Below the pieces are notes generated by a model. It was not told the origin of the DNA and made no database searches. It was given only the letters and a program-made list of their open reading frames with translations. From contig CAZDTP010000081.1 of the NCBI GenBank assembly GCA_964508365.1, forward strand, positions 1-13,483: a stretch of 13,483 nt of DNA. Reading direction: 5' to 3'. Both the position numbers and the translations under genes were made by a program. This stretch comes from an uncultured archaeon. Lineage in GTDB: Archaea; Asgardarchaeota; Lokiarchaeia; Sigyniarchaeales; SOKP01. Positions 428-13,483 of this stretch are shown here, one piece after another (within the stretch, counting starts at the first letter, position 1; every line of letters begins with the position of its first letter).

Positions 428-553
428 TGTGGCATTCGAAAGAGGAGCTCAAGGTTCAGGCTTAGAGTGAATCGGGTTTATGTGAGTGGAATGCGATACG
501 AGTTTGTTTTGCGAGATTGAATTGTGAGATGGAGGTGGGAGTGTGTTCCGGAT
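428..553 (+). repeat. Long direct repeat, copy A (23S rRNA trailer)
   Basis: Matches 12830-12954: 66/71 identical over 428-498, an identical 18-mer TTGTTTTGCGAGATTGAA (504-521) and an identical 20-mer GGTGGGAGTGTGTTCCGGAT (534-553), separated by short indels. Confidence 0.95.
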
Positions 554-590
554 TTAACTTTTTTTTTGTAAATTTTTTTGTGATCATTTT
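554..590 (+). terminator. Oligo-T tract, probable archaeal intrinsic terminator of the rRNA transcript
   Basis: T9 (559-567) and T7 (573-579) runs directly after the trailer repeat; archaeal RNA polymerase terminates at oligo-T tracts. Confidence 0.5.
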
Positions 591-614
591 ATAGTTTGAT
601 TTAGATTGAATTTT

Positions 615-1232
615 ATGAAGGATTACTTGCGGTTAAACGAGAAAAATATTGTCAAGTATAAGGACAAATACAACTGGCAAGGAAATGGGAAAATGGTTCA
701 CGATCCCATAGTCATAGATTCGATTCCTCCTCATTATAGTAAATTAAAACTAAAGAATTTGAAGAGATTTATAGATATTTCGGATCTTTCGTTGGACTAT
801 GTTTATTTAACTGGTTGTAGATATGTATCAATAGAGGGATGTGAATTTAAATATTTTAATTTGACATCATGCCAGAACATGGTAGTAAGGCGCAATTTTC
901 TTCCTATCTTTATTCTTCTTTACAGTAGAAATAATAAGATCGTTGGGAATCAAATATCTGAAAGAGATTACGATATGGTAAAAAAATCTTTAGGTGCACG
1001 CGAAGATAATAAAAAACTTAATTTAGTATTAGGTTTAATAGTTGCCCTAATTTTTTTCATATTGTCCTATGGTGGGAGTCACTACAGTACCTTTGTATAT
1101 TTAATTTTTTTCGTTATCGTATTGGGAGTTCTCGTTTATTTTAAAATTCAAATCATAGTTCTCATAAAACGAAGCAATACTCTTCCAGATAACATTTTTA
1201 CAAAGAATGTAAAAATACCTGTAGAAATATGA
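615..1232 (+). CDS. Hypothetical membrane protein: short right-handed parallel beta-helix (PbH1/NosD-like) repeats plus two C-terminal TM helices
   Basis: ORF track gives 606 (TTG); ATG at 615 preferred. Three consecutive coils: DYVYLTGCRYVSIEGCEF / KYFNLTSCQNMVVRRNFL / PIFILLYSRNNKIVGNQI (795-956). Two hydrophobic stretches: LNLVLGLIVALIFFILSY and TFVYLIFFVIVLGVLVYF. No N-terminal signal peptide. Confidence 0.6.
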   Translation: MKDYLRLNEKNIVKYKDKYNWQGNGKMVHDPIVIDSIPPHYSKLKLKNLKRFIDISDLSLDYVYLTGCRYVSIEGCEFKYFNLTSCQNMVVRRNFLPIFILLYSRNNKIVGNQISERDYDMVKKSLGAREDNKKLNLVLGLIVALIFFILSYGGSHYSTFVYLIFFVIVLGVLVYFKIQIIVLIKRSNTLPDNIFTKNVKIPVEI

Positions 1233-1249
1233 TTTCCATTTTCGAAGTT

Positions 1250-1278
1250 GAGATTGAAGGGTGTGAGTTTGTTCCGGA
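1250..1278 (+). repeat. Short copy (C) of the repeat core: GAGATTGAAG-GGTGTGAGTTTGTTCCGGA
   Basis: GAGATTGAAG is identical to copy B at 12919-12928. The next 19 nt match the A/B core at 17/19. Starts 17 nt after the stop codon at 1232. Confidence 0.8.
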
Positions 1279-1303
1279 GTTTTTACTCCAATTTTATTTT
1301 TCT
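1276..1303 (+). terminator. Hairpin GGAGT-TTTT-ACTCC followed by T-rich tract
   Basis: Perfect 5-bp stem 1276-1280/1285-1289, then ATTTTATTTTTTCT. The same layout recurs at 13396-13432. Confidence 0.5.
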
Positions 1304-1311
1304 ATTTCACA

Positions 1312-1364
1312 AATTAGCTTAAATAGTGAATTTCGTATTGAAAGGTAAATTCAGCGTCTGATTT
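1312..1364 (+). repeat. Diverged intergenic block Z, copy 1
   Basis: 37/54 aligned positions identical to 12990-13043, including TTTC-TATT and GGTAAATT. Lies at nearly the same distance from TCCGGA (34 vs 37 nt). Confidence 0.55.
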
Positions 1365-1437
1365 CAATTACAAAATTTTTATTTTTCCAAGAAAGTTAGC
1401 TGAAGAAATTGTTATTGAGGAGAAATTAAAGCCTCAT

Positions 1438-2364
1438 TTGCCTACGAATTATACTCTAATAAAATATAAAAGTTTTATATTAGAAATGGAAAAGATTATC
1501 TCATTCTTGAGCAATTTTAATTTAACTTTAGAAGAAATTTCTAAAGATGAGATTTTGTTATCAAGGGATGGTTCTAATTCTACTGCCCTTTTATATATTA
1601 AAATAAATAAAAGTACAAATACTGAAGATATTCTATTTTGCTCACTTGGAATTAATAAAAAAAATAAGATTGATAAAGACATTGAGGATGAGTTAATATC
1701 ATTCATCTGGGATATTCTTAAGGATAATTTTACCGATTTTTCGATATTAGAACATGAATCTTCTGCAATAGAACCTAATGAATCAGACAAGGATGTATTA
1801 ATTAAAATTTTAAATAATTCTTGCGAAAGACCTTATCTAGACTTTAAAAAAGAAGTTGGATTAATTAATAAGACTCAAAAAGCAGAATTTATTAAAGATG
1901 CAATAGCATTAACTAATATGGCATATTTAAATGGAAATATATCATATTTAATTATAGGCATCGAGGAAATAAACTGTCAGATTAAATCTTTCAATAATAT
2001 TGAGAATTATGAAATCCTTAGACAACAAATATCTCAGATAATTGAAGAAAATATTGATTTCGCACCAAATATAGAATTCACTTTTTTCAAAATTTATGAT
2101 TTATTCACTTGGCAACAGAATAACGAGGTATCTGAAGATCTGATATTTAATAAAATACATCAGGACGATTCAAAACAAGAAAAAATATTAATGGTTAAAT
2201 TCCACCGTATTCCTAACCGAGTCTGCGATTTAAAGGATGATTATACTTTTCAAAATAAAAATGGAAGACCAGATAAATATGATAGGGGAATTTCTTGGAT
2301 GAGAATTGGATCTCATACATATAAAATTAATGAACAACATCGAATTTTTCTTCGAGAGAAGTAA
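1438..2364 (+). CDS. Schlafen/AlbA_2-domain protein with an uncharacterised N-terminal domain
   Basis: C-terminal half shows the AlbA_2 pattern E-x4-DFK (CERPYLDFK, from 1822), AEFIKDAIALTN, YLIIGIEE and terminal WMRIGSHT. Start is either TTG 1438 or ATG 1486. Very AT-rich (14/60 G+C at 1801-1860). Confidence 0.75.
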   Translation: MPTNYTLIKYKSFILEMEKIISFLSNFNLTLEEISKDEILLSRDGSNSTALLYIKINKSTNTEDILFCSLGINKKNKIDKDIEDELISFIWDILKDNFTDFSILEHESSAIEPNESDKDVLIKILNNSCERPYLDFKKEVGLINKTQKAEFIKDAIALTNMAYLNGNISYLIIGIEEINCQIKSFNNIENYEILRQQISQIIEENIDFAPNIEFTFFKIYDLFTWQQNNEVSEDLIFNKIHQDDSKQEKILMVKFHRIPNRVCDLKDDYTFQNKNGRPDKYDRGISWMRIGSHTYKINEQHRIFLREK

Positions 2365-2504
2365 TTCTTCATTTTTTTAGAGTAATATCTATTTTTAGTA
2401 TTAATATCCATTTTTTCAGAAAAATAAGGATTTTTTATTAATTTTTCCTTTAAATATAGGTTTATAATGGTATAGTTATAAATTTGTGTGTTGATGGGGT
2501 CTAC

Positions 2505-2514
2505 ATATTTAAAA
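2505..2514 (+). promoter_or_regulatory. Putative TATA box (ATATTTAAAA) for the HEAT-LRR gene
   Basis: TTTAAAA lies 27-33 nt upstream of ATG 2541, the usual archaeal spacing for a short-leader mRNA. AT-rich context lowers specificity. Confidence 0.4.
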
Positions 2515-2540
2515 GAAGTGGAAAGAAGAGATCATTGGAG

Positions 2541-4121
2541 ATGTCCGACTTAAATCCGACCGAGATATACCGTAGGTATCAACGCAACGAGTTAGACAAG
2601 CTGCTGGCTGTTGATTATTTAAAATCGATTATCGAGAGCAATAGCGAGGAGGAATCGAGGGTACGGTCCGTTGAGATATTAGGCGAGATGAATTTAGATG
2701 CAGGTGAGGTTTTTGAGTTTTTCGAGCAATTGGTAACTTCAGATTTAAACGAAAAAGTCAGGTTAACAGCAGCTCAAGTAGTTATAAATAATTTTTTAGA
2801 AAAAGGAGAAAAACTTCTGCGATGGGTTTTTCAACACGAACAATCATGTGAATGTTTATTAGGAATATATAACACACTTTCTAGCAAGGAAACTGCTCTT
2901 GTAGAAGATTTATTATCATTAATGGAAGAAACTATTGGCAAGAAGTATCTAGTTTACCACGACTTATTAAATAAAGAAGCTATGGCATTAGAATTGTTAG
3001 GACAGCACCTATGCAATTTATATGTTTTTTTTGAGTTGGAAAAATGGAATTTTACAGATCTCACGATAAAGAATCAACGAGTTGTTTCAATCAGAATAGA
3101 AAATTTATACAATTCAATTAACTCGAAATTTTTCAGTCTTTTTTCTGGTTTACAAGAATTGGTATTGATTGATTGTAAACTCAGCGATGCATTTTATTTG
3201 AGCGCGATTTCAAGTTTAAGGATTACTGGAACTGAAGAGGGTCGACTGGATAGTATTGATGACATAAAAGGCTTCGAGAAATTAAAAAATCTAAGAAATT
3301 TAGATTTAAGTACCAATAATATTTCAGAAATAACAAAATTAGAAAATTTAACGAATTTAGTAAATCTTAACCTCTCTCATAACAATATCAGTGAGATCAA
3401 AGGGTTTGAAACCTTGAAAAATCTAGAAGTCTTAAATTTAGAATTTAATAATATTAAGGAAATTAAAAATCTTGAAAACCTTGTTAACTTGAGAGAGTTA
3501 AATCTATCTGAAAATAAAGATATTACTGAAATTAAAAGTCTTGGGAAATTAAAAAATTTAGAGATCTTAATACTTTATAATAATTACAGGATAAACGAGA
3601 TAAAAGGACTTGAAGGTTCGAAAAATCTTAGAATATTAAATATTTCAAAAGATAGCTACATGATTGACAAAGAGGGAATCGAAGCGTTTTTAAATTGGAG
3701 ATCTGCGTTTAAGGATGGAATGGATGTCAAGGAGATTCTCAAAAATCAGGAGATTCTCAACGATAAATATAAGGAAAACAGAAAAAAACTAGAGGAAAAT
3801 AGAGATTACATTAAAGAAATAAAAGGACTGGATACACTGACTAATCTAGAGGAGCTTTCACTCGAAGGAAATTCGATATCGGAGATAAAGGGACTGGAAA
3901 AATTAAAAAAACTAAGGCTTCTAGATTTGAGTAGAAATAAAATAAAAGAAATAAAAGGTCTGGAGAATTTGAAGAAATTACAAACCTTAATTCTCACTAA
4001 TAATAACATAACTCCTATCGAAGGTCTTGAAGGTCTTGAAAACGACTCAGGAGTATCTGAACCTCAAAAATTTGTAGAATATTGTTATGAAAAAAAACGG
4101 GCTATAAACAACAAAATTTAG
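2541..4121 (+). CDS. HEAT-like N-terminal domain + SDS22-type leucine-rich repeat protein (526 aa)
   Basis: ATG 2541 (MSDLNPTEIY) preferred over GTG 2484. HEAT-like helices ESRVRSVEILGEM and EKVRLTAAQVV. Nine 22-23-aa repeats LxxLxxLxLxxNxIxEIKGL from ~3270 to ~4030, one interrupted by a 54-aa insert. No signal peptide or TM helix. Confidence 0.88.
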   Translation: MSDLNPTEIYRRYQRNELDKLLAVDYLKSIIESNSEEESRVRSVEILGEMNLDAGEVFEFFEQLVTSDLNEKVRLTAAQVVINNFLEKGEKLLRWVFQHEQSCECLLGIYNTLSSKETALVEDLLSLMEETIGKKYLVYHDLLNKEAMALELLGQHLCNLYVFFELEKWNFTDLTIKNQRVVSIRIENLYNSINSKFFSLFSGLQELVLIDCKLSDAFYLSAISSLRITGTEEGRLDSIDDIKGFEKLKNLRNLDLSTNNISEITKLENLTNLVNLNLSHNNISEIKGFETLKNLEVLNLEFNNIKEIKNLENLVNLRELNLSENKDITEIKSLGKLKNLEILILYNNYRINEIKGLEGSKNLRILNISKDSYMIDKEGIEAFLNWRSAFKDGMDVKEILKNQEILNDKYKENRKKLEENRDYIKEIKGLDTLTNLEELSLEGNSISEIKGLEKLKKLRLLDLSRNKIKEIKGLENLKKLQTLILTNNNITPIEGLEGLENDSGVSEPQKFVEYCYEKKRAINNKI

Positions 4122-4142
4122 ATAAGTTTTATTAAACTCCCA

Positions 4143-5681
4143 TTATCTAGCTACTGATCCATCGGAAGCAATCTCTATAACCTTTCTTATCGCATCTGGA
4201 ATCCCAACTAAAGCTATGGAAGCAATAAAATTAGCAATATTTTTGAAATTGCGCGCAATTCTATTTTCTCCATCTACAGGGGGTCTATAATTTAGAAAGT
4301 CATCAATATGTGACTGAGGATCTGAAACAGGTGGAAATTCCGATGGATTGTCACGTTCGGGATTATCTACAAAGTAATTAGGGTTCGGATCGTTATCATT
4401 GTTCTCTTTCTTTCCTTCGTTATAACAGTATTGCATGGCACACGCAGTATAGTATACTGACCAACACAATAATTCTTCTACCTTATTATAATAGTATTGA
4501 TGATTACTGTTTAATCGTCCTTCACTCTTTAAGTCATCATCCCAATCCCAATAAATATCAGTGTTATATGTACTATAGTTTATAAATAACCCACTGTTCT
4601 CAGCGATAGCATGATTATTTCCATTTATTGGGATATGTTGATGATTTCCGTCAGTCCTGAATGCTATCTTTATTGCTTCATCAGCCATTCGTGCAACTGC
4701 TATGTCAGGAGGTATGGGAATTATGGGAAGCAAAGTTACTTTATATGTATCCCAAGAAAATATCGTTTGTTCAGGACCTCCATTTGATCCAAGCTTTTTA
4801 TCCCATTTCGTCATATTAGCAAGATAGTTTTCAAACCAATTATGGAATAGCGCTTTTGAATATACATGTGGGTGCATATTTCTCTCAATTATATGTGCTG
4901 GAACCACAAGATCAGCAAGATAATGCGTCATTGAACCTAACCATCCTGAAGCTCCTTCTGGTTGCATTGCAGATATTTTATTACCATTATCATCTGTTTT
5001 TGTATTACTTATGCATTTAATTGCCTCTTTTCCTAGCAATAACGCAGTTGTAGCAGATCCAGTATATACAGGGATAAAATTATAAATTCCCGTATCAGAT
5101 CTTATATACTTAAAATGGTATCTATGTTTATTTTCTTGACCAACCCACATGTTGGGGATTTCAAAATCTTTAATAATTACACCTTCAGAGGGTATATCTA
5201 TTTTTTGAATATCTGGATAGTCATTCTTTTTCATATCTGGCATTTGAGTCGCGAAGATAAAAGTATAGTAACTCCTTATAGTGCGATGAAATCCAGAAGA
5301 GGCTCCATAATCTTCTTTCCAAGAAGGCCATTTATTCCTTGCTATATCTGAATTTATTAACCAAGTCCAATCACCAAAATGTAATGGATTTTTAATAGCA
5401 TTTCGCAAAGTTCGTAGTGCGGCATCAGCGATCCAATCATGAGTACCATAGTGAGAACCATCATAAAACTGATCTTCATCAATTCCTTTTTTCCCAAAAA
5501 TAAAATCAGATGGTTTTTTTGGTGCTTTGTAATAATCTTCTGTTGAAAAGTTTCCAGGAAATCCCATTCCCCAATAATTTGGACCATTCCTACACGCTAA
5601 TGAGTCGGCGATTACTACTTCAAGAAAAACTATTACAACAATCGCACTTAATAGCATTAAACATTTCTTTTTTGTTTTCAT
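4143..5681 (-). CDS. Secreted zinc-dependent phospholipase C / S1-P1 nuclease-fold protein
   Basis: Signal peptide (KTKKK + LMLLSAIVVIVFL + SLA). Motifs GTHDWIAD (H81), QMPD (D149), HRYH, HYLADLVVPAH (H253, D257, H263) and FHNWFE (H280, E284). Spacing parallels Bacillus cereus PC-PLC H14/D55/H69/H118/D122/H128/H142/E146. Substrate not determinable. Confidence 0.8.
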   Translation of the reverse strand: MKTKKKCLMLLSAIVVIVFLEVVIADSLACRNGPNYWGMGFPGNFSTEDYYKAPKKPSDFIFGKKGIDEDQFYDGSHYGTHDWIADAALRTLRNAIKNPLHFGDWTWLINSDIARNKWPSWKEDYGASSGFHRTIRSYYTFIFATQMPDMKKNDYPDIQKIDIPSEGVIIKDFEIPNMWVGQENKHRYHFKYIRSDTGIYNFIPVYTGSATTALLLGKEAIKCISNTKTDDNGNKISAMQPEGASGWLGSMTHYLADLVVPAHIIERNMHPHVYSKALFHNWFENYLANMTKWDKKLGSNGGPEQTIFSWDTYKVTLLPIIPIPPDIAVARMADEAIKIAFRTDGNHQHIPINGNNHAIAENSGLFINYSTYNTDIYWDWDDDLKSEGRLNSNHQYYYNKVEELLCWSVYYTACAMQYCYNEGKKENNDNDPNPNYFVDNPERDNPSEFPPVSDPQSHIDDFLNYRPPVDGENRIARNFKNIANFIASIALVGIPDAIRKVIEIASDGSVAR

Positions 5682-5688
5682 TTTTTAT

Positions 5689-5695
5689 TCACCTC
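5689..5695 (-). promoter_or_regulatory. Shine-Dalgarno site GAGGTGA of the PLC-fold gene
   Basis: TCACCTC on the + strand, 7 nt upstream of the ATG at 5681; complementary to the archaeal 16S 3' end. Confidence 0.75.
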
Positions 5696-5735
5696 GTTTT
5701 AAATTTAAATTTAATATAATTTTTTGTCATTAGGC

Positions 5736-8700
5736 TTAACTCCCATATATTGAATTTTCGTAAATTATATGATAATATCCCGACTTCAGGAAGAAAGTAA
5801 TGAAACAAAACGCCGAGAGGACGACAGAAATGACGGTGTGGACAATCATAATGGTCTTGATATGCTCCGTGCCGCCTCCAGTTTTCGCAGCTCCACTAAA
5901 TAGCACGAGAGAAGTTGTAAGTCCAATAATCGAACTGAATAAAGAAACAACCATAATCGGATATCCGCCAAGTAGTTCGTTTAGTGTGAGTGGGTCTTTT
6001 TCTTGAGATGGTACAAGAACTCCATCTTCATTCTCTTCCCAATTGATACCCATGACATCATCGTTCATATCAAATATCATTAAAGCCATTAATAATCCCG
6101 AAAACTGGGTAAGAAAGTTGAAGTTGAGAGAGCCAACTTCATTTTTAGAAACACTGAGTGCGATTAGAAATCCAACACTCTTTACAAACATGTGTAACCC
6201 GAGTCCGATGAGAGATCCCATGTCGTTTGTAGAAAATACAAAAGTACTGAAAGCGATAATGTTTAAGACGATATCTAGTACGGCAAGAGTCCCAGCGATA
6301 ATTTGGGCTGCAAGTTGTATTCTTGCATCTTTAAAGGACGCGAAAAATGCCATTGTCATGTATACTATTGAGATGACAATTGCACCTGCGATGCCTTCCA
6401 CACCTACCCCGTTCGGGTAGCCATAGAAGAAGGTATTTTTCATGTTCTCAAAGCTTCCCATGTGCCATATCCTCTTATTTGTGGTGATAATTGTGTTATG
6501 CGCTTGATTATCTTCAACCTCGAAGCTAAATCCCCACGCTCCGGAGGTAAAGTTATAACTGTTCAAATCAGAACTCTGTTCGTATTTGTAGGCATAGTGT
6601 CCGTCTCCAAGCACATCGATGAAATATTCGTCGTATCCTTCGGGTCCTGGACCGTAATGGTCTCCGGTCCACTTCATATCAATAGGTTTTAGTGGATCGT
6701 CTGGATGATCGAGGTTAAATAGCGTTAGTTTAGGGACGAATTCAAATTCGTTGTTCCAGTGTTCTTCGTGAGTTCCGTCGGGATCTTCAATGTAAACCCA
6801 AAATCTTAATATGAATTCGTCAGAAACGGGTGATAGCGCTGTTAAATCCGACTCTTCGCTGAGTAAGCGATTCCAAGTTAAGTCTTCGACGTACCACTTC
6901 CAGATGATTGGTGGAAGGTTAGTTCCCGTTATTCTGGGCTTAAGGAGTGGTCCTTCAAACCAGCACGGAATGTATTCAAAATCCTCGTCACTGTCAATGT
7001 ATTCGTCTTCGGGTTCATTATCCTCTTCTTCTTCGATAATTTGGTAATCCCATAAGACGGATACCGATCCATCGTAAAAGACAGCTTCGTAGTAATAGTT
7101 AAGAGTAGTCGGCTCATCAATGGAAATGTAGTTCGAGAAATTGAGTGTTCTACTATAGGTATTAAAACTCATCTCTTCGTAAGTGTAAGTAGATGCTAGA
7201 CTCATTGGAAAGGTCTTTATAGTTTCGTTTGGCCATTTCAATTTGAGATACACTTGTTCGGGTGTGAAACCGTCGAGAAAGTCGCATCCGGTTGCGGTGA
7301 ACTCGAACTCACTATCTATATATCCAGAGAATGGTTCTAAATATGAACTTATAAAATAGCTCCTATTATCGTGGAATAGAGGACCGATCGCGTAGCCATA
7401 ACAGGGCCATCTCGTTGTTTTATTCACGATGCTTGCTTTAGTAATAAAGCAATAGTGCCACTGTCCGTTTCGATGATAAAAGTCGAAATCTTCCCCAAAG
7501 TCAACGGTGCGATTAAATCTTACCCAATTGTAGTAGGTATCGAACGATTGTCCAGGAGTTTCGTCCATAGAATAGTTGTAAGTGTTCCCAGAGGGACTCA
7601 CGAGCACGAGAGTGACATAGTCGGGAGCGTATCCCTGCGGTCGATGTCGGTACGTAGCGTGAAAGTCATATCTCAACCCTCCTAGATGATCGAATCCGCA
7701 ACCGAGCTCAGGTGGAACGGTTGCATTGCTGTCAGTCCCCATGCAATCTTCGAGGAGCGATCCGAGTTTAGTGTCCATCGTAAGAAGTGGGAAGTATATG
7801 TCAAAGTATTCCCAATAAGTCCATGTTATATATGCTTCGACTCGTACTTCGTAGTCGGACATTTCAAGTTCGATAAATGCTATGCGAGTATCGACTCCGT
7901 ATGGTATAGCCCAGTTAATTCCCCAGTCGCACTCGAATTCGGTAAAGATGCTTGTTATATCGAGAGTAATTCCGATACCAAGGAATATTATTGAAATCGT
8001 TAATACTTCGAGGGCAAGACAGATGTATGCAACAACGATTAAAGCAGCGCGAATGAGACACCAGACGAGATTTGCGAGGAAGGTAAGAAGATTTAGTCCA
8101 ACTCCATTTGCGTTGTTATCATTGAATTGAGTTATACTGATGATGATTAGCGAGAAGATCATAATTAGTCCGATGGTTGGTAAAATAAACGGTAGCAAGA
8201 ACAGCCAAAAGAAAATGGGATTGTAGGGATTTGGCGTGGTTCCGTAGAGAGAATCTTCATAGCCACCGCCCCACAGAATAAATCTCGAGACGGTGTTGGG
8301 CACATTAAGGGACACAGCGCTCGTTCCGTTCAATTTTGTAGAAACAGCAGTATACACAATACCAAGGTCTGTTGATGTTTGGTTGTTTTCGTCAAGTGTT
8401 TGATTTATAGCACAGGTGAGGAGCAGATCGATCAGTTCCATGGCTTCTTGAGAGGTCATTTGGTATCTAACGAACACGAAATCAGCGTCTCCGCACTCGT
8501 CGTCAACGATGTTCCCGTCCCTATCGATGGAGTAAAACTCAAACTCTCCCTCAACATCGCTATATAGTACGGTTTGGTCTAATAGTCCGTTTTCAATGAA
8601 AGCGTTGAGTTTTGTCTTAGTGAAAAGGCTAGTTGGGACGACGATTGCGTTGGCTCCTTGGACGAAGGGAGTGCCAACTCCGGAATCTGTTATGTGTAGT

Positions 8701-11700
8701 TGGAAGACGTTCATTCTTTCTTGATTTTGATAGTGCCCGTTAAACAAGGTCTCGTTTTTCGAATAGATGGCTACGGTGTTAACTTTATCCACAGTAATTT
8801 TCTTTACATTTACCAGAATTTCGTCTGTTCTACCGAATTGTCCGGTGTGTTGGGCAACGAGGGCTTGCGTTTCTTCTGGGGAGTCAAGGTCATAGAAATC
8901 GGAATACCAATTTCCGTCAAAGCGGTTGAGATCTGGGAGGTCAATATCTCCGAGCATTGCGTCCTCCCACAGGGTGAAGAAAAATTGGACTTGGTTACTT
9001 TGCGAGGTAAAATCGTCGCTAATATCGATGTAGTAGCGATATCCTTCTCCACCGTTCCACCAAGCGGTTTGGTATGTTATGTACCAGTCTGCTACGAAAA
9101 CATCGGTTGTTGCATGTTTTCCTACAGTAAAGAACCCAACTTTATTTTCCTCTTCCGTGGCGTCTGGATCGGTAATATCGTTGAGTTGAAGGTATATACC
9201 AATTTTTAACACTGGGTTTGTGGTTGGCCACGCTTGGTTTCGATAGCTCGCATAGATGGGAGAAATTTCGAGAATGATGTTTTCAAGGGGATTTCTATCC
9301 TTAGAGTCGGCAGCACCGTCTCCATCGGTATCTCGACTTATGGGATTTGTACCCGTGGTAAAAATCTCGTAGCTATCGCTCCACCCGTCAGAATCTGAAT
9401 CGAATAATGCAGGATCGGTCAACCACGCGTGAGTATCGAGCGGTCCAGCTTCCACGAATGTATCGATTTCGATGTAAAATTCGTTGAGAGCGAGCAAATC
9501 TGCCCCTACATGAGTGGATTCTAAGGCAATAATAAGTATATATTCTCCGTAGATGTCAGATATGGTATTAGATTGGAGTAAATCAAATAAATTCACGCTC
9601 TGAGAGAACAGGAGATAATCGCTTGTAGTGCTTTGTTGAGAATAATCGATTAAAACAGAGTTACCAATGGTTTTGTTTAAATATTTTTTAACTACTGTAA
9701 ATTCTACGGAAGTATTTGGTTGAAGTTGTCCGTTAGATTCAATTTCTAAGTTTAACTGAGCGTTAGACACCCTCCCTATTTGCGGGATATCTAACCTGTA
9801 AGCTGTGGTATAGTTGGAATTAAAAGTCGTTGAATTGACAATTCTTTGAGTGCTGTTATATAAATCTTTTACATCTATTTTTTCCGTGCCTTCTACGAGT
9901 AGGTTCATTTCTACTCCATCGAGGATTCCATCCTCGTCAAAATCTTCAGCATGAGGGTCGAGATACCTACAAAATTCCAATTCAAATTGTTCCACCAAAC
10001 ATCCTGTGCTGTAGTCGTCCACTTCCAGAACGTAGTTTCCATAGTAGCTGTAACTGAGAGAATCGTTGTTCATAATCTTGCTTACATCTATTACATGAGA
10101 AAAGTATCTCGTTCCATTAGTAGTTGTTTCGAATAGGAGGGCGTCGTATCCTTCGTGCTTTACTCTCACGGTTAAATTTTTTACGTTGCTCTCTTCAATC
10201 CCGTATTCCCCGGTTTCGTTCGTTCCATGTTCTCCAAACGAGAGTGCTACGGAAATTTGGGCGGTTGCTGCTTTCTGGAACATGTATGGAAAGTGAAGAG
10301 AGACGGGATTTGATACGTTGACCCTGATTTCATTTTTTTCACTATTTTCTAATTGTATGGTATAAAATTTCATTTCAGCACCATCGGAAGCAAAATCACG
10401 ATCACAATCCGGGTTGAGGGGACTCGTTTTAAATCCTAAGAGCCCCCAACCGTAGAATTCTTCTCCATCTTTAATGCCATCTCCATCAGAATCAGTATTG
10501 TCGAGATCAGTTCCGATATCTAATTCAATTTTGTCCGAGAGAAAGTCTCCATCATTATCAAAATTAGCCGGATAAGGATCCTGCAAATCTTCTAACCCAT
10601 CTCCGTCAGAATCTTTTAAGCGGGGATTGCTCCCAGTTTGATATTCATCGTAATCCGAAACGCCATCACTATCAGTATCATAAATTAAGGGCTCGCTCGA
10701 GACATGGAGAACTTTAGAACCTTCAAAGAAATTAATCGTAACATTCCATCCATAAAACTCTATCGAATCCTTGAGGATGTCATAGTCGCTGTCGTCGTTC
10801 AATGGATTTGTCCCAATAGAAAGCTCTCCAATTCCAGAAGCGTCCAATCCATCGCAAAGTCCGTCGCCATCAGTATCAGGATTAACAAAATTAGTATTGA
10901 ATATAAATTGCTCGCACTCATCAGAGATATAATCGTTATCGGCATCAGAAAAAGTTTCCAAAGATTCGCTCGTTACATCTAATAATTGTTCGATATTATC
11001 AGGAACGCTATTTTTATTGTTGTCGATAACGACATTAACGAAGAATGTAGTTACGCTTTCCTTTCCGGACGGATCTACTACTTTTACTTGCCCTCTATAA
11101 ATAGCAGTCTCCGTACAGCTAAAAGTCATCGTGCTGGTAGCTTTCCCAACGGTGTCGCTATGGATGAAAGTAGTATCTCCATCAGTAATTTCCCAATAAA
11201 ATTTCAAATTATTAATGTCGAAAACGCTATCGTAACCGTACGCGATTAGTTGTAATTCTGCTTCATTGCTTGAGTCGGCATTTGGACCGTTATACACATA
11301 ATTTGAAACGAATACTTCTGGAGCGATATTATTTACTTTCAAAGTAATATTTTCCGAAGCAACTTGACCGTTTTGATTAGTAACATTTAACATAAAACGA
11401 TAATCTCCATCGTCTAGCATGATTGAAGGGCGTTTATCGTTTGAGATTTGAGCACCAGTTTCATCGTACCAGGTATAGGATAATATAGCCTCGTTCTCTA
11501 ACGAATCGTAAACTTCAACATCTAGATTAACCATTTGACCTTCGATATTTTGAGGGAGCGTAAAAGGACCTAGAACATCTAATGTGATAACATTCTCAAT
11601 TTCATTTTTTTTAGTTCCGTTAGTTTGATTACTATCGATATTTATTAGTTTTGAACTGTGATCCACTGCTCCATTATCATCTTTAACGCATAGTTCAACG

Positions 11701-12668
11701 GTGTATTGCCCGGAAGTATCGTAACCGTGATGGACATATTTCCCAAAAGCCGTGTGATTATCGCCAAAATCCCATATATACATTAGCGAATTATAATCGC
11801 TATCAGTGTCCACACTTAGCTCCGCGTTAAATTCTACGATGCCCTCTGATAAAATTTGATCAAAGTAAGCCACAGGAGCTTTGTTAATAATCTCTATATA
11901 TTCTGTTTTTTGAGATAGAGCGCCTTGGTCGTCGAATATGGTAATTGTAACAGGATATATACCCGCGTTTTCCCATTTATGAACTATTGAATTTTGATGG
12001 GATGTTGTTTGGTTATTATCTGCGAAATCGTAAACATATTTTAGAACTTCATTTTCTAAATCTACTTCGGATTCAATTATGTCTACGACGCTTACCCTAA
12101 CAAGTTCATCTTCGTGCGCGGAATTTGCGACTAAAACTTCAAATTGTGGAGCATTATTTTTGATTTCAATAAATAACGCTTTACTGGTAGAAAATCCATT
12201 TTGATTCCACACATGAATTAAAGGCGTGTATTTTCCTTGTACGGCATAGGAATGTTTAACGCTATTGGAGGTATTGTTTAGCTCTACACTTGTTCCATCC
12301 CCGAACACTATGGCTCCTTTTGAAAAACTTCCTATAACAATCCAACTAAAGGTGATGTCTTCATTTACATCTACTTCACGTTTATTGCCATTGAACACTA
12401 CATCAATGTTAGTTGATATCAATGTAAAATATAATCCAGAAAACATCGCAAAAAGCAAGACACCAATCAAGAACAACGCCTTCACTTTTCTGGACTTGAT
12501 TTTTTTTACCACATTGTTCCGTTTTTCTCGCTGATACCCAGGCAAGCGAATATAATTTCGACTCTTCTTCTCAAAAATTTTTGGTTGGAATACTTGTCGG
12601 TAAAAATTGTCTCTTTTTTGTTCTCTTTTACTTTCATTCTTAGCTGAAATTTCACTCTTATGGGGCAT
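5736..12668 (-). CDS. Giant (2310 aa) cell-surface glycoprotein: N-terminal TM anchor, ~5 PKD/Ig-like domains, DxDxDG Ca-binding (TSP3-like / binary-toxin-Ca-site-like) repeats, central hydrophobic helices, three beta-sandwich-like modules and ~6 C-terminal TM helices
   Basis: TM at aa 64-84. PKD signatures FGDG, YDFAD, WDFGD, HxYxxxGxYxVxLxVxD (nt ~12400-11030). Eleven clear DxDxDxxxD motifs (e.g. DTDGDGLCD, DSDGDGIKDGEEFYGW). Hydrophobic aa 1484-1575 and aa ~2092-2297. More than 25 N-x-S/T sequons. Single uninterrupted ORF. Confidence 0.85.
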   Translation of the reverse strand: MPHKSEISAKNESKREQKRDNFYRQVFQPKIFEKKSRNYIRLPGYQREKRNNVVKKIKSRKVKALFLIGVLLFAMFSGLYFTLISTNIDVVFNGNKREVDVNEDITFSWIVIGSFSKGAIVFGDGTSVELNNTSNSVKHSYAVQGKYTPLIHVWNQNGFSTSKALFIEIKNNAPQFEVLVANSAHEDELVRVSVVDIIESEVDLENEVLKYVYDFADNNQTTSHQNSIVHKWENAGIYPVTITIFDDQGALSQKTEYIEIINKAPVAYFDQILSEGIVEFNAELSVDTDSDYNSLMYIWDFGDNHTAFGKYVHHGYDTSGQYTVELCVKDDNGAVDHSSKLINIDSNQTNGTKKNEIENVITLDVLGPFTLPQNIEGQMVNLDVEVYDSLENEAILSYTWYDETGAQISNDKRPSIMLDDGDYRFMLNVTNQNGQVASENITLKVNNIAPEVFVSNYVYNGPNADSSNEAELQLIAYGYDSVFDINNLKFYWEITDGDTTFIHSDTVGKATSTMTFSCTETAIYRGQVKVVDPSGKESVTTFFVNVVIDNNKNSVPDNIEQLLDVTSESLETFSDADNDYISDECEQFIFNTNFVNPDTDGDGLCDGLDASGIGELSIGTNPLNDDSDYDILKDSIEFYGWNVTINFFEGSKVLHVSSEPLIYDTDSDGVSDYDEYQTGSNPRLKDSDGDGLEDLQDPYPANFDNDGDFLSDKIELDIGTDLDNTDSDGDGIKDGEEFYGWGLLGFKTSPLNPDCDRDFASDGAEMKFYTIQLENSEKNEIRVNVSNPVSLHFPYMFQKAATAQISVALSFGEHGTNETGEYGIEESNVKNLTVRVKHEGYDALLFETTTNGTRYFSHVIDVSKIMNNDSLSYSYYGNYVLEVDDYSTGCLVEQFELEFCRYLDPHAEDFDEDGILDGVEMNLLVEGTEKIDVKDLYNSTQRIVNSTTFNSNYTTAYRLDIPQIGRVSNAQLNLEIESNGQLQPNTSVEFTVVKKYLNKTIGNSVLIDYSQQSTTSDYLLFSQSVNLFDLLQSNTISDIYGEYILIIALESTHVGADLLALNEFYIEIDTFVEAGPLDTHAWLTDPALFDSDSDGWSDSYEIFTTGTNPISRDTDGDGAADSKDRNPLENIILEISPIYASYRNQAWPTTNPVLKIGIYLQLNDITDPDATEEENKVGFFTVGKHATTDVFVADWYITYQTAWWNGGEGYRYYIDISDDFTSQSNQVQFFFTLWEDAMLGDIDLPDLNRFDGNWYSDFYDLDSPEETQALVAQHTGQFGRTDEILVNVKKITVDKVNTVAIYSKNETLFNGHYQNQERMNVFQLHITDSGVGTPFVQGANAIVVPTSLFTKTKLNAFIENGLLDQTVLYSDVEGEFEFYSIDRDGNIVDDECGDADFVFVRYQMTSQEAMELIDLLLTCAINQTLDENNQTSTDLGIVYTAVSTKLNGTSAVSLNVPNTVSRFILWGGGYEDSLYGTTPNPYNPIFFWLFLLPFILPTIGLIMIFSLIIISITQFNDNNANGVGLNLLTFLANLVWCLIRAALIVVAYICLALEVLTISIIFLGIGITLDITSIFTEFECDWGINWAIPYGVDTRIAFIELEMSDYEVRVEAYITWTYWEYFDIYFPLLTMDTKLGSLLEDCMGTDSNATVPPELGCGFDHLGGLRYDFHATYRHRPQGYAPDYVTLVLVSPSGNTYNYSMDETPGQSFDTYYNWVRFNRTVDFGEDFDFYHRNGQWHYCFITKASIVNKTTRWPCYGYAIGPLFHDNRSYFISSYLEPFSGYIDSEFEFTATGCDFLDGFTPEQVYLKLKWPNETIKTFPMSLASTYTYEEMSFNTYSRTLNFSNYISIDEPTTLNYYYEAVFYDGSVSVLWDYQIIEEEEDNEPEDEYIDSDEDFEYIPCWFEGPLLKPRITGTNLPPIIWKWYVEDLTWNRLLSEESDLTALSPVSDEFILRFWVYIEDPDGTHEEHWNNEFEFVPKLTLFNLDHPDDPLKPIDMKWTGDHYGPGPEGYDEYFIDVLGDGHYAYKYEQSSDLNSYNFTSGAWGFSFEVEDNQAHNTIITTNKRIWHMGSFENMKNTFFYGYPNGVGVEGIAGAIVISIVYMTMAFFASFKDARIQLAAQIIAGTLAVLDIVLNIIAFSTFVFSTNDMGSLIGLGLHMFVKSVGFLIALSVSKNEVGSLNFNFLTQFSGLLMALMIFDMNDDVMGINWEENEDGVLVPSQEKDPLTLNELLGGYPIMVVSLFSSIIGLTTSLVLFSGAAKTGGGTEHIKTIMIVHTVISVVLSAFCFITFFLKSGYYHIIYENSIYGS

Positions 12669-12689
12669 ATACGCAATAAATATTGAATG

Positions 12690-12697
12690 TATATAAA
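12690..12697 (-). promoter_or_regulatory. Putative TATA box (TTTATATA) for a leaderless transcript of the giant gene
   Basis: Lies 22-29 nt upstream of the ATG at 12668 with no SD site. No clear purine-rich BRE upstream, so support is weak. Confidence 0.35.
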
Positions 12698-12829
12698 AGA
12701 AAAATAGACAAAAATGTAAAATCCCTAAATCGTAAATAATGTGATTGTGAAATTTTTACAGAAGAGATTCCTCAAAAATAGGATAAAACAAAATTAAAAC
12801 ATACTTTAATCTATCTAAAATTGATTTTA

Positions 12830-12954
12830 TGTGACATTCGAAAAAGTAGCTCAAGGTTCAGGCTTAGAGCGAATCGGTTTATGTGAGTGGAATGCGATAT
12901 GTGTTTGAATTGTTTTGCGAGATTGAAGTGTTTTGGTGGGAGTGTGTTCCGGAT
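12830..12954 (+). repeat. Long direct repeat, copy B (duplicate of the 23S trailer with no rRNA upstream)
   Basis: Alignment as for copy A; followed by T-runs at 12959-12987. Confidence 0.95.
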
Positions 12955-12989
12955 ATTATTTTTTTTACTATTTTTTTTGTTATTTTTGT

Positions 12990-13043
12990 AATTGGGGTAA
13001 TTATTGAGCTTTCCTATTCGATGGTAAATTACACGTTAGCTTT
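12990..13043 (+). repeat. Diverged intergenic block Z, copy 2
   Basis: 37/54 identity to 1312-1364, at an equivalent position after TCCGGA. Confidence 0.55.
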
Positions 13044-13128
13044 TCACAAATGAGTGAAAAAGTATAAATTGCGTATTTTCTTAAGTTCTCTACAAGCCTT
13101 TAAGGTTTAAAATAAAACATATAAAATA

Positions 13129-13134
13129 GAGGTG
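13129..13134 (+). promoter_or_regulatory. Possible Shine-Dalgarno site GAGGTG
   Basis: 13 nt upstream of ATG 13148; spacing is longer than usual. Confidence 0.45.
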
Positions 13135-13147
13135 TGAAGTAAAAACA

Positions 13148-13363
13148 ATGTCAAAATGTCCGTATTGTGAAGCGGATCTTCATATAGAAGATTTTTTTGT
13201 AGTGTTTGAAAAAGAATCAAAAAAAGGGAAAATAAAAACAAAAATCGGGGATTTTAGAGGGGAGAGTGTTGAGAAGTTTCGACAGCGTCTTAGAATGTGG
13301 GCGTGTCCTGGGTGTGATACGATTTTGGGGTTTTCAGAATACCGTTACGATAGTAAAATGTAA
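13148..13363 (+). CDS. Small CPxC...CPxC zinc-finger/zinc-ribbon protein (71 aa)
   Basis: CPYC at aa 4-7 and CPGC near the C-terminus (MWACPGCDTILGF), a layout typical of small archaeal CPxCG-related zinc-finger proteins. Confidence 0.8.
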   Translation: MSKCPYCEADLHIEDFFVVFEKESKKGKIKTKIGDFRGESVEKFRQRLRMWACPGCDTILGFSEYRYDSKM

Positions 13364-13377
13364 TTTTAGGAAGTAAT

Positions 13378-13398
13378 GAGGTGGGGATGTGTTCCGGA
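13378..13398 (+). repeat. Short copy (D) of the repeat core: GAGGTGGGGATGTGTTCCGGA
   Basis: 19/21 identical to 532-552; begins 14 nt after the stop codon at 13363. Confidence 0.8.
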
Positions 13399-13432
13399 GA
13401 TCTTTCTCCATACTTTTTTATTTTCTTTTTCT
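13396..13432 (+). terminator. Hairpin GGAGA-TCTT-TCTCC followed by T-rich tract
   Basis: Perfect 5-bp stem 13396-13400/13405-13409, then TTTTTTATTTTCTTTTTCT; parallels 1276-1303. Confidence 0.5.
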
Positions 13433-13483
13433 ATTCTACTATTTTTTGTAACTAATGCATTTTTTTTTACATTAATACCCAAT

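Follow-up and report, generated by a model that had tools for sequence, protein, structure and literature searches.

Copies of the 23S rRNA trailer punctuate an array of accessory-gene cassettes in a Loki-type Asgard archaeon

The DNA stretch analysed here (the window) is a complete contig, C81, of 13,483 bp from a 4.07-Mb metagenome-assembled genome (MAG; G000, 31.8% GC), and our subject is a repeat that begins at the 3' end of the 23S rRNA gene in this contig and recurs downstream between accessory genes. Relatives retrieved via a core protein carry the labels Promethearchaeota/Promethearchaeia, that is, they are Loki-type Asgard archaea. The match to RF02540, the Rfam archaeal large-subunit rRNA (LSU) model, ends at position 436 (192.6 bits, model positions 2740-2987), and the sequence that follows, which we call the trailer (copy A), reappears near the other end of the window as copy B. 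In a local alignment, 428-596 and 12830-12993 are identical in 143 of 175 columns (81.7%), with 15 mismatches and 17 gap columns, and the match has an E-value of 7e-38 in a blastn search against the whole G000 genome. The similarity sets in 8-9 nt upstream of the last LSU model position, and both copies lie on the + strand and are thus direct repeats. An earlier reading made from the letters of this stretch (the sequence-only reading) had described just such a same-orientation repeat starting at the 23S 3' end, with four substitutions and one indel in its first 71 nt, and our alignment reproduces both the repeat and these counts exactly; the proposed length of ~125 bp, however, falls short, as the similarity continues through a T-rich tract to 596/12993. 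Copy B is also the orphan that it was said to be, standing between divergent genes, a giant gene on the - strand (start 12668) and a zinc-finger gene on the + strand (start 13148). The features that concern the repeat are given below, where a cassette means at least one gene together with the trailer copy behind it, and motif2 is a second conserved junction motif.

1-436, + strand: 3' end of the 23S rRNA gene (RF02540); the contig begins inside the gene
437-596, + strand: native 23S trailer, copy A, with a bulge-helix-bulge (BHB) half-site made of AAGGTTCAG (451-459), GCTT (460-463), the bulge AGA (464-466) and GTGAA (467-471)
1239-1289, + strand: partial trailer copy closing cassette 1, the distal ~50 nt, with the core at 1260-1278 and the hairpin GGAG..CTCC at 1276-1289
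1300-1400, + strand: motif2 module at the start of cassette 2, core GGTAAATTCAGCGTCTGATTTC at 1344-1365
12830-12993, + strand: orphan trailer copy B closing cassette 2, complete from the end of 23S up to and including the T-tract
13370-13425, + strand: partial trailer copy closing cassette 3, with the core at 13380-13398, hairpin and T-run, 7 nt past the stop codon
13429-13483, no strand: overlap with contig C18, 55 nt exact; the array continues on C18

Archaeal pre-rRNA processing stems carry a BHB motif that is cut by the tRNA-splicing endonuclease, and in its sequence features copy A fully matches the 3' strand of a stem of this kind. Four relatives have their 23S gene intact, and in them the trailer (~130-170 nt) pairs over its full length with a C/A-rich leader of ~190 nt, and the predicted duplexes reach -92 to -114 kcal/mol, versus -44 to -59 kcal/mol for shuffled trailers (z -6 to -12). 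Copy A forms 101 bp with the leader of G000 itself, which lies on contig C25 (-106.6 kcal/mol, z -8.1). A canonical BHB (3-nt bulge, 4-bp helix, 3-nt bulge) is predicted in all five genomes, its strands being AAGC followed by the bulge aat in the leader and GCTT (460-463) followed by the bulge aga (464-466) in the trailer. The RNAalifold consensus of the five genomes keeps 87 leader-trailer pairs, with 15 one-sided and 5 compensatory changes, and 14 of 435 cells (3%) are non-canonical. No RNA data set was listed among the public runs with this sequence. The leader pairing, the predicted BHB motif and the conserved and compensatory pairs together identify the trailer as the 3' arm of an unusually long (~100-bp) 23S pre-rRNA processing stem, with a BHB half-site, and the repeat is a copy of this arm. 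It differs from the archaeal BHB processing stem as generally known in its length, ~100 bp over a trailer of ~130 nt, and in that the 3' strand is present in multiple orphan copies whereas the leader strand is single-copy. Beyond the half-site, copy A contains a distal core motif (534-552), next to which lies the T-rich tract. Copy B still pairs with the leader, though more weakly than copy A (81 bp, -75.8 kcal/mol, z -5.3), a copy at C18 2308 pairs on a par with the native trailer (-103.9 kcal/mol) and the short copies are without the BHB half-site. We also looked for orphan leader copies able to pair with the orphan trailers, which would give BHB-flanked cassette RNAs, and found none in G000 or in any locus examined, the leader being single-copy throughout.

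Two other identities of the element were considered and set aside. A 5S rRNA is excluded for the ~125-nt element by the lack of any RF00001 match in the window at E up to 10 or in the genome, and by its G/T-rich, non-self-folding sequence. Hairpins like those of attC sites are not predicted either: single-stranded DNA (ssDNA) folds of A and B, on both strands, give z-scores of 0.13, 1.46, -0.12 and 0.49, and the values of -1.5 and -2.0 for the C18 copy are due solely to its terminal hairpin.

The sequence-only reading had named misassembly at either repeat as a danger. Logan contigs of X1 cover 103-802 and 8452-13483, plus 5656 nt beyond the window end, and those of X3, a different sample, cover 403-567, 558-2805 and 11152-13483, plus 1077 nt beyond, all with 0 differences. 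Both repeats are thus spanned, free of differences, by contigs assembled independently from two samples, and neither is a misassembly. The assembly divides the single 23S gene of G000 between two or more contigs: the leader and the first ~900 nt are at the end of C25 (C25:48932-50013 matches the leader and 23S start of the relatives), the 3' end is at the start of C81 and the middle is missing. A whole-genome Rfam search of G000 with the LSU and small-subunit (SSU) models gave no match, despite the partial 23S pieces on C25 and C81. Compared with the archaeal LSU model, the 23S 3' region of the window contains an insertion of ~190 nt (142-329). It falls between model positions 2882 and 2883, at what we take to be the location of helix 98 (ES39); supersized expansion segments have been reported in Asgard rRNA.

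The distal core, taken as a 19-nt sequence (GGTGGGAGTGTGTTCCGGA) with up to three mismatches allowed, occurs nine times in the 4.07-Mb genome, always on the + strand and always in C81 or C18:1-7050 (window 534, 1260, 12935 and 13380; C18 1067, 2308, 3715, 4801 and 7025). Since C18 starts with the last 55 nt of the window and the X1 and X3 contigs extend past the window end, the nine copies belong to one locus, spanning 20.5 kb in the window and the first 7 kb of C18. The genome-wide search for dispersed copies that had been suggested as a check thus finds all nine core copies at a single place, with one diverged stray on C15. The copies partition a 22.6-kb array of accessory genes between the 23S gene and the conserved core genes, which begin at C18 ~9660 (joined coordinate 23,088, 22.6 kb past 23S) with an ARPP-1 domain protein, an ArsR-type HTH protein and an ADP-forming acyl-CoA synthetase-like protein. 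The native trailer by the 23S gene heads the row. All copies share their 3' end (the core, often a GGAG..CTCC hairpin, and a T-run) and differ in where they start, being either full or 5'-truncated: B starts at the 23S end, C18 2308 at the BHB block, C18 4801 further in, and the others retain the last 40-55 nt. The single 12.3-kb block of the sequence-only reading does not survive this analysis, as the partial copy at 1239-1289 divides that stretch into two cassettes, the second 11.5 kb long, within the larger nine-copy array.

The stray on C15 (C15:39079-39240, equal to L002:1580-1740) comprises the last ~35 nt of 23S and the trailer and is 61-67% identical to the other copies. It comes after a gene of 283 aa; motif2 occurs twice on this strand, 2-5 kb upstream, and the site may be a second small cassette region. 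Motif2 itself (GGTAAATTCAGAGTCTGATTTC) lies ~60-90 nt past several trailer copies, at cassette starts, in relatives as well as in G000. Its G000 sites are window 1344-1365 and a diverged one at 12958-13075, C18 3806 and 7113, C15 34592 and 36872, and C77 6650 and 12708; it often forms same-strand clusters and some sites are outside the 23S array. Counts were 1-7 per genome in five genomes, and 0 for a reversed-pattern control.

The cassettes within the window carry the following genes.

606-1232, + strand: cassette 1, ORF606, membrane protein of 208 aa, no Pfam match
1438-2364, + strand: cassette 2, Schlafen/AlbA_2-domain protein of 308 aa (PF04326, E 5.9e-07)
2484-4121, + strand: cassette 2, leucine-rich-repeat (LRR) protein of 545 aa (LRR_4, E 1.1e-31)
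4143-5681, - strand: cassette 2, 512-aa protein, weakly like zinc-dependent phospholipase C (PLC; PF00882, E 0.0067, under the curated cut-off)
5736-12668, - strand: cassette 2, giant protein of 2310 aa with PKD and TSP3 repeats (Pfam)
13148-13363, + strand: cassette 3, zinc-ribbon protein of 71 aa, CxxC...CxxC

The giant gene has a GC content of 37-45%, compared with 26-33% in its neighbours and 31.8% in the genome. Its homolog in the related genome G008 is 79% identical, while the figure for the adjacent PLC-like gene is only 57%. Among 104 array open reading frames (ORFs) of 12 genomes (alignment A1), six encode small GTPases of the Gtr1/RagA/Arf/Roc type and five LRR proteins, so that eukaryote-like signalling proteins are part of the mobile cargo. 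The other frequent Pfam families are TPR, alpha/beta hydrolases, flavodoxins and zinc ribbons, and a PHROGs scan of the array ORFs adds methyltransferases and NUDIX hydrolases.

The core genes lie at very unequal distances from 23S: the interval measures ~1.3 kb for G017, 3.4 kb for G009, 22.6 kb for G000 and no less than 37 kb for G012, and its genes differ from one genome to the next; in G008 the variable region reaches at least 32 kb past 23S, with no core gene within the stretch fetched. Different content at the same locus between conserved flanks, the mark of a flexible genomic island, is what a comparison of G000 with L038, G017, G009, G012 and G008 reveals, and a search for different cargo in relatives was among the checks suggested in the sequence-only reading. 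Its proposal that the 23S trailer, rather than a tRNA, is the hotspot of gene gain and loss is borne out by this different cargo at the same place. A hidden Markov model (HMM) of the trailer gave 35 matches in 15 sequences of related genomes, all co-oriented with 23S. All but four end within a common span of ~20 model positions, whereas on the 5' side they begin at many different points: in G021 and G012 some extend by 124-130 nt into the 23S gene, and lengths range from ~40 to ~310 nt. Orphan trailer pieces were found in about a dozen of the 24 other genus genomes searched. The copies are mostly closest to the native trailer of their own genome, which suggests local origin or gene conversion. 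Beyond the genus, the closed single-contig genome G037, from another family of the same order, has further copies of its own 23S trailer at three places, +4.7, +19.8 and +23.2 kb, all co-oriented, and nowhere else, and because of it the array pattern is neither confined to the genus nor an artefact of MAGs.

The closest relative, L038 (96% DNA identity), shares an alpha/beta-hydrolase cassette with G000, and the copy after this cassette is 100% identical through its T-run; past the T-run the two are unrelated until the core genes. The record of this contig (DATKTW010000013.1) is titled 'Candidatus Nanopelagicaceae bacterium', yet it has 95-96% DNA identity to G000 over more than 10 kb of core genes, and it therefore looks mis-binned or mislabelled. 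In G021, locus L023 (10534-12261) holds a 1.7-kb insert with two paralogous genes for small membrane proteins (200 and 211 aa), flanked by direct repeats of ~310 nt that consist of the last ~124 nt of 23S and the whole trailer; this is the cleanest example of a single insertion that we found.

The cassettes recur as well, in other genomes and at other places within the array. ORF606 comes after the native trailer in G000, and its G021 homolog (58% identical) after the second full copy, behind the 1.7-kb insert; in both a partial copy closes the cassette. A related-locus search with ORF606 as the query found nothing. A 1.6-kb cassette (L035:1043-2687) matches G008 at 89.8%. The PLC-like and giant genes are present in two of 42 genus genomes, G000 and G008, in both of them inside the array downstream of 23S. 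Homologs of the zinc-finger protein in G012 (58%), L033 (63%) and G008 (32%) each come after a trailer copy; a copy follows right past the stop codon in G000 and G008, and is not clear in G012 and L033. The ancestral order 23S-trailer-zinc-finger gene, on which the sequence-only reading had built, cannot be kept, because the zinc-finger gene and the copy that trails it form a cassette in their own right. Both L038 and G017 point to a small minus-strand ORF and the core genes as the original flank: G017 has one small cassette and one further copy, and the small ORF that it shares with L038 lies within the conserved flank. As for the empty site that was to be sought in relatives, G017 has only the short interval from 23S to the core genes, and the G008 zinc-finger homolog is ~440 nt past the 23S 3' end (~280 nt past the trailer), with a short extra copy before it.

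No integrase or transposase was found by Pfam among the genes enclosed by A and B, in line with the sequence-only reading, and none is among the 25 most frequent of the 125 Pfam families of the 104 array ORFs from 12 genomes, the rarer families being partly covered by the PHROGs scan and by four whole-genome family searches. These searches, for tyrosine recombinases (PF00589), serine recombinases (PF00239), LAGLIDADG endonucleases (PF14528) and TnpB (PF07282), gave no match inside any array, and the PF00589 matches, in five genomes, are all on non-array contigs. G000 has a single tyrosine recombinase, on C17, which we take to be XerA-like; four relatives were searched for it, and three have a close counterpart, on contigs without an array. 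The first core genes adjoining the array include no recombinase, and Rfam finds no tRNA in the window. As for a viral or plasmid counterpart of the trailer of the attP type, the exact 17-mer of the BHB block has no match in IMG/VR, where exact matches only were sought; five IMG/VR matches to the 16-mer core were discarded as chance, the surrounding sequence being unlike the trailer.

How then are the cassettes exchanged? Homologous recombination between trailer copies is, in our view, the probable mechanism behind the turnover between close relatives, with its breakpoint at a copy, and behind the recurrence of cassettes in arrays free of recognisable recombinases. Cassettes would be gained, lost and swapped between strains via recombination within trailer copies, the partners being a resident copy and one carried by incoming DNA or by a circle that had looped out of another array. 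The stretch of homology would thereby be duplicated, and 23S would always keep an intact trailer next to it: one crossover with a circle, or two with linear DNA, would restore the native trailer, as selection demands, and no array-encoded enzyme would take part. We favour this reading because copy lengths vary widely, copies resemble their own native trailer, the crossover restores the trailer and the arrays contain no recombinase.

Several points nevertheless weigh against it. No recombination event was seen in the runs, which consist of contigs only. In such contigs there are candidate excision or deletion joints (487>1332, 506>1260 and 1290>12931), with sides of 26-30 nt that may come from other strains or from cross-matching copies, and we do not use them as evidence. 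A site-specific enzyme supplied in trans would also be compatible with the 3' end that the copies have in common and with their strongly conserved core of 13-19 nt and its hairpin. The right-hand boundary of the array is not at a copy, so illegitimate recombination also occurs. Some copies are nearer to the native trailer of a different species than to that of their own genome, as the copy at C18 2308, which is 76% identical to the native trailer of G021 and at most 67% to copy A. Finally, the model leaves the first trailer copy of a new gene unexplained and has no role for motif2.

In a rival explanation cassettes are captured site-specifically, by an enzyme provided in trans (a recombinase, a nuclease or a homing-type endonuclease, of the host or of a helper element) that reads the distal core GGGAGTGTGTTCC together with the hairpin and T-run, and possibly motif2, and inserts and excises cassettes as IntI does at attC or integrases do at tRNA 3' ends. 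The near-common end point of all but four copies would then be a recognition site, consistent with 40-nt copies in several species that keep the core with at most 2 mismatches in 13; motif2 at cassette starts, non-random by its reversed-pattern control, would have a function, and the genes-then-repeat layout does resemble integron cassettes. The breakpoint between G000 and L038, exactly past the T-run of a copy, fits too, but a breakpoint at the end of homology is equally expected from homologous recombination. Moreover, there is no candidate enzyme in or beside any array, the lone tyrosine recombinase of G000 is on C17 and its counterparts also lie away from arrays, and copies A and B are without attC-like self-folding (z -0.1 to +1.5). 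We regard capture of this kind as rather unlikely.

A different view is that the copies are retained for a function of their own, as transcription terminators or insulators between cassettes, or as extra or decoy arms in the processing of read-through pre-rRNA, and that the array grows mainly by local tandem duplication and decay. Most copies do end in the GGAG..CTCC hairpin and a T-run, several orphan copies still pair strongly with the leader, as that at C18 2308 does (-103.9 kcal/mol), and the resemblance of copies to the trailer of their own genome would follow. Many cassette genes are, however, on the opposite strand, and a + strand terminator cannot serve these; the pairing of copy B is reduced (81 versus 101 bp, -75.8 versus -106.6 kcal/mol) and the short copies have lost the half-site. 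Local duplication alone is also insufficient, because genomes 96% identical differ in cassette content and distant genomes share the same cassettes. This makes retention for such functions a quite improbable explanation of the array. An assembly or binning artefact, in which repeats join the DNA of different organisms or an rRNA fragment is wrongly attached, is hardly credible: the contig does begin inside 23S, a typical break point of assemblies, and X1 depth over 1-450 is ~3x that of the rest of the window, but contigs from two samples bridge both the 23S-trailer-ORF606 junction and the copy B region with 0 differences, and more than 12 related genomes have the same layout, as does a closed genome in one contig.

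Integration hotspots at tRNA and tmRNA genes are textbook knowledge and depend on element-encoded integrases. Integration at tRNA genes (Reiter 1989, as cited in PMC2217521) and tandem 'additive' flexible genomic islands at tRNA/tmRNA 3' ends (PMC4033161, citing Lopez-Perez 2013) are the closest parallel, as there too the end of a stable-RNA gene is the anchor, a direct repeat of the 3' part keeps the gene intact, stacked co-oriented repeats separate accessory genes and close strains differ. Here the anchor is instead the 23S trailer, or processing arm, the cassettes and array ends contain no integrase or transposase, the repeats are ~40-310 nt long and cassettes go down to a single 71-codon gene. 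With integrons, with integrase-less attC clusters (CALINs) and with archaeal integrons (Ghaly et al. 2022, PMC9668308) the arrays share small, mostly promoter-poor cassettes, trailing co-oriented repeats from one fixed site and fast turnover, and co-oriented repeats do separate small cassettes here (9 of 9 copies on the + strand in G000, 35 of 35 HMM matches co-oriented in relatives). Unlike those systems, our arrays have no IntI-type integrase, their repeats are G/T-rich, derived from an rRNA arm and devoid of attC-like hairpins, and cassette genes are on both strands.

Two further systems place variable DNA directly behind an rRNA gene. In SAR11 the hypervariable region HVR2, rich in surface proteins, lies between the 23S and 5S genes, and exchange by homologous recombination via rRNA-gene homology has been proposed for it (PMC2217521, PMC4033161). 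It resembles our locus as a hypervariable, surface-gene-rich island directly behind the 23S gene, but it is a single replacement island between two real rRNA genes, with an integrase gene, and has neither internal trailer copies nor a cassette structure. The HeimM2/HeimV2 elements of Ca. Heimdallarchaeum (Wu et al. 2022, PMC8813620) are Asgard mobile DNA directly past the 16S gene and include an internalin-like LRR gene, which recalls the LRR genes in our arrays. They are, however, discrete elements between 16S and tRNA-Arg, one with a homing-endonuclease-like gene, and neither repeats made of trailer copies nor arrays are reported for them. Full-text searches, in the portions of the literature that they opened, found no description of arrays punctuated by copies of an rRNA processing arm.

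The tail of the rRNA gene appears to serve here as a gene-swapping site, as the ends of tRNA genes do elsewhere. Its anchor is the arm of an rRNA processing stem, its stacked units can be as small as the cassettes of integrons, and the search of the arrays revealed no recombinase. The trailer copies provide a simple sequence handle for locating the flexible genome in fragmented MAGs, and arrays of them explain the contig breaks at these loci. Among the proteins that the cassettes encode are small GTPases, LRR proteins and giant surface proteins. A more far-reaching idea, which we consider doubtful, is that Asgard archaea have a dedicated gene-capture system without an array integrase, where the processing-arm copies and GGTAAATTCAGAGTCTGATTTC are the recombination sites for a candidate host factor; this factor could be a nuclease, or the RNA-processing machinery acting via an RNA or R-loop intermediate. 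If true, such a system would stack and shuffle cassettes, some of them with genes for eukaryote-like small GTPases or for LRR proteins, downstream of the genes that the cell transcribes most strongly.

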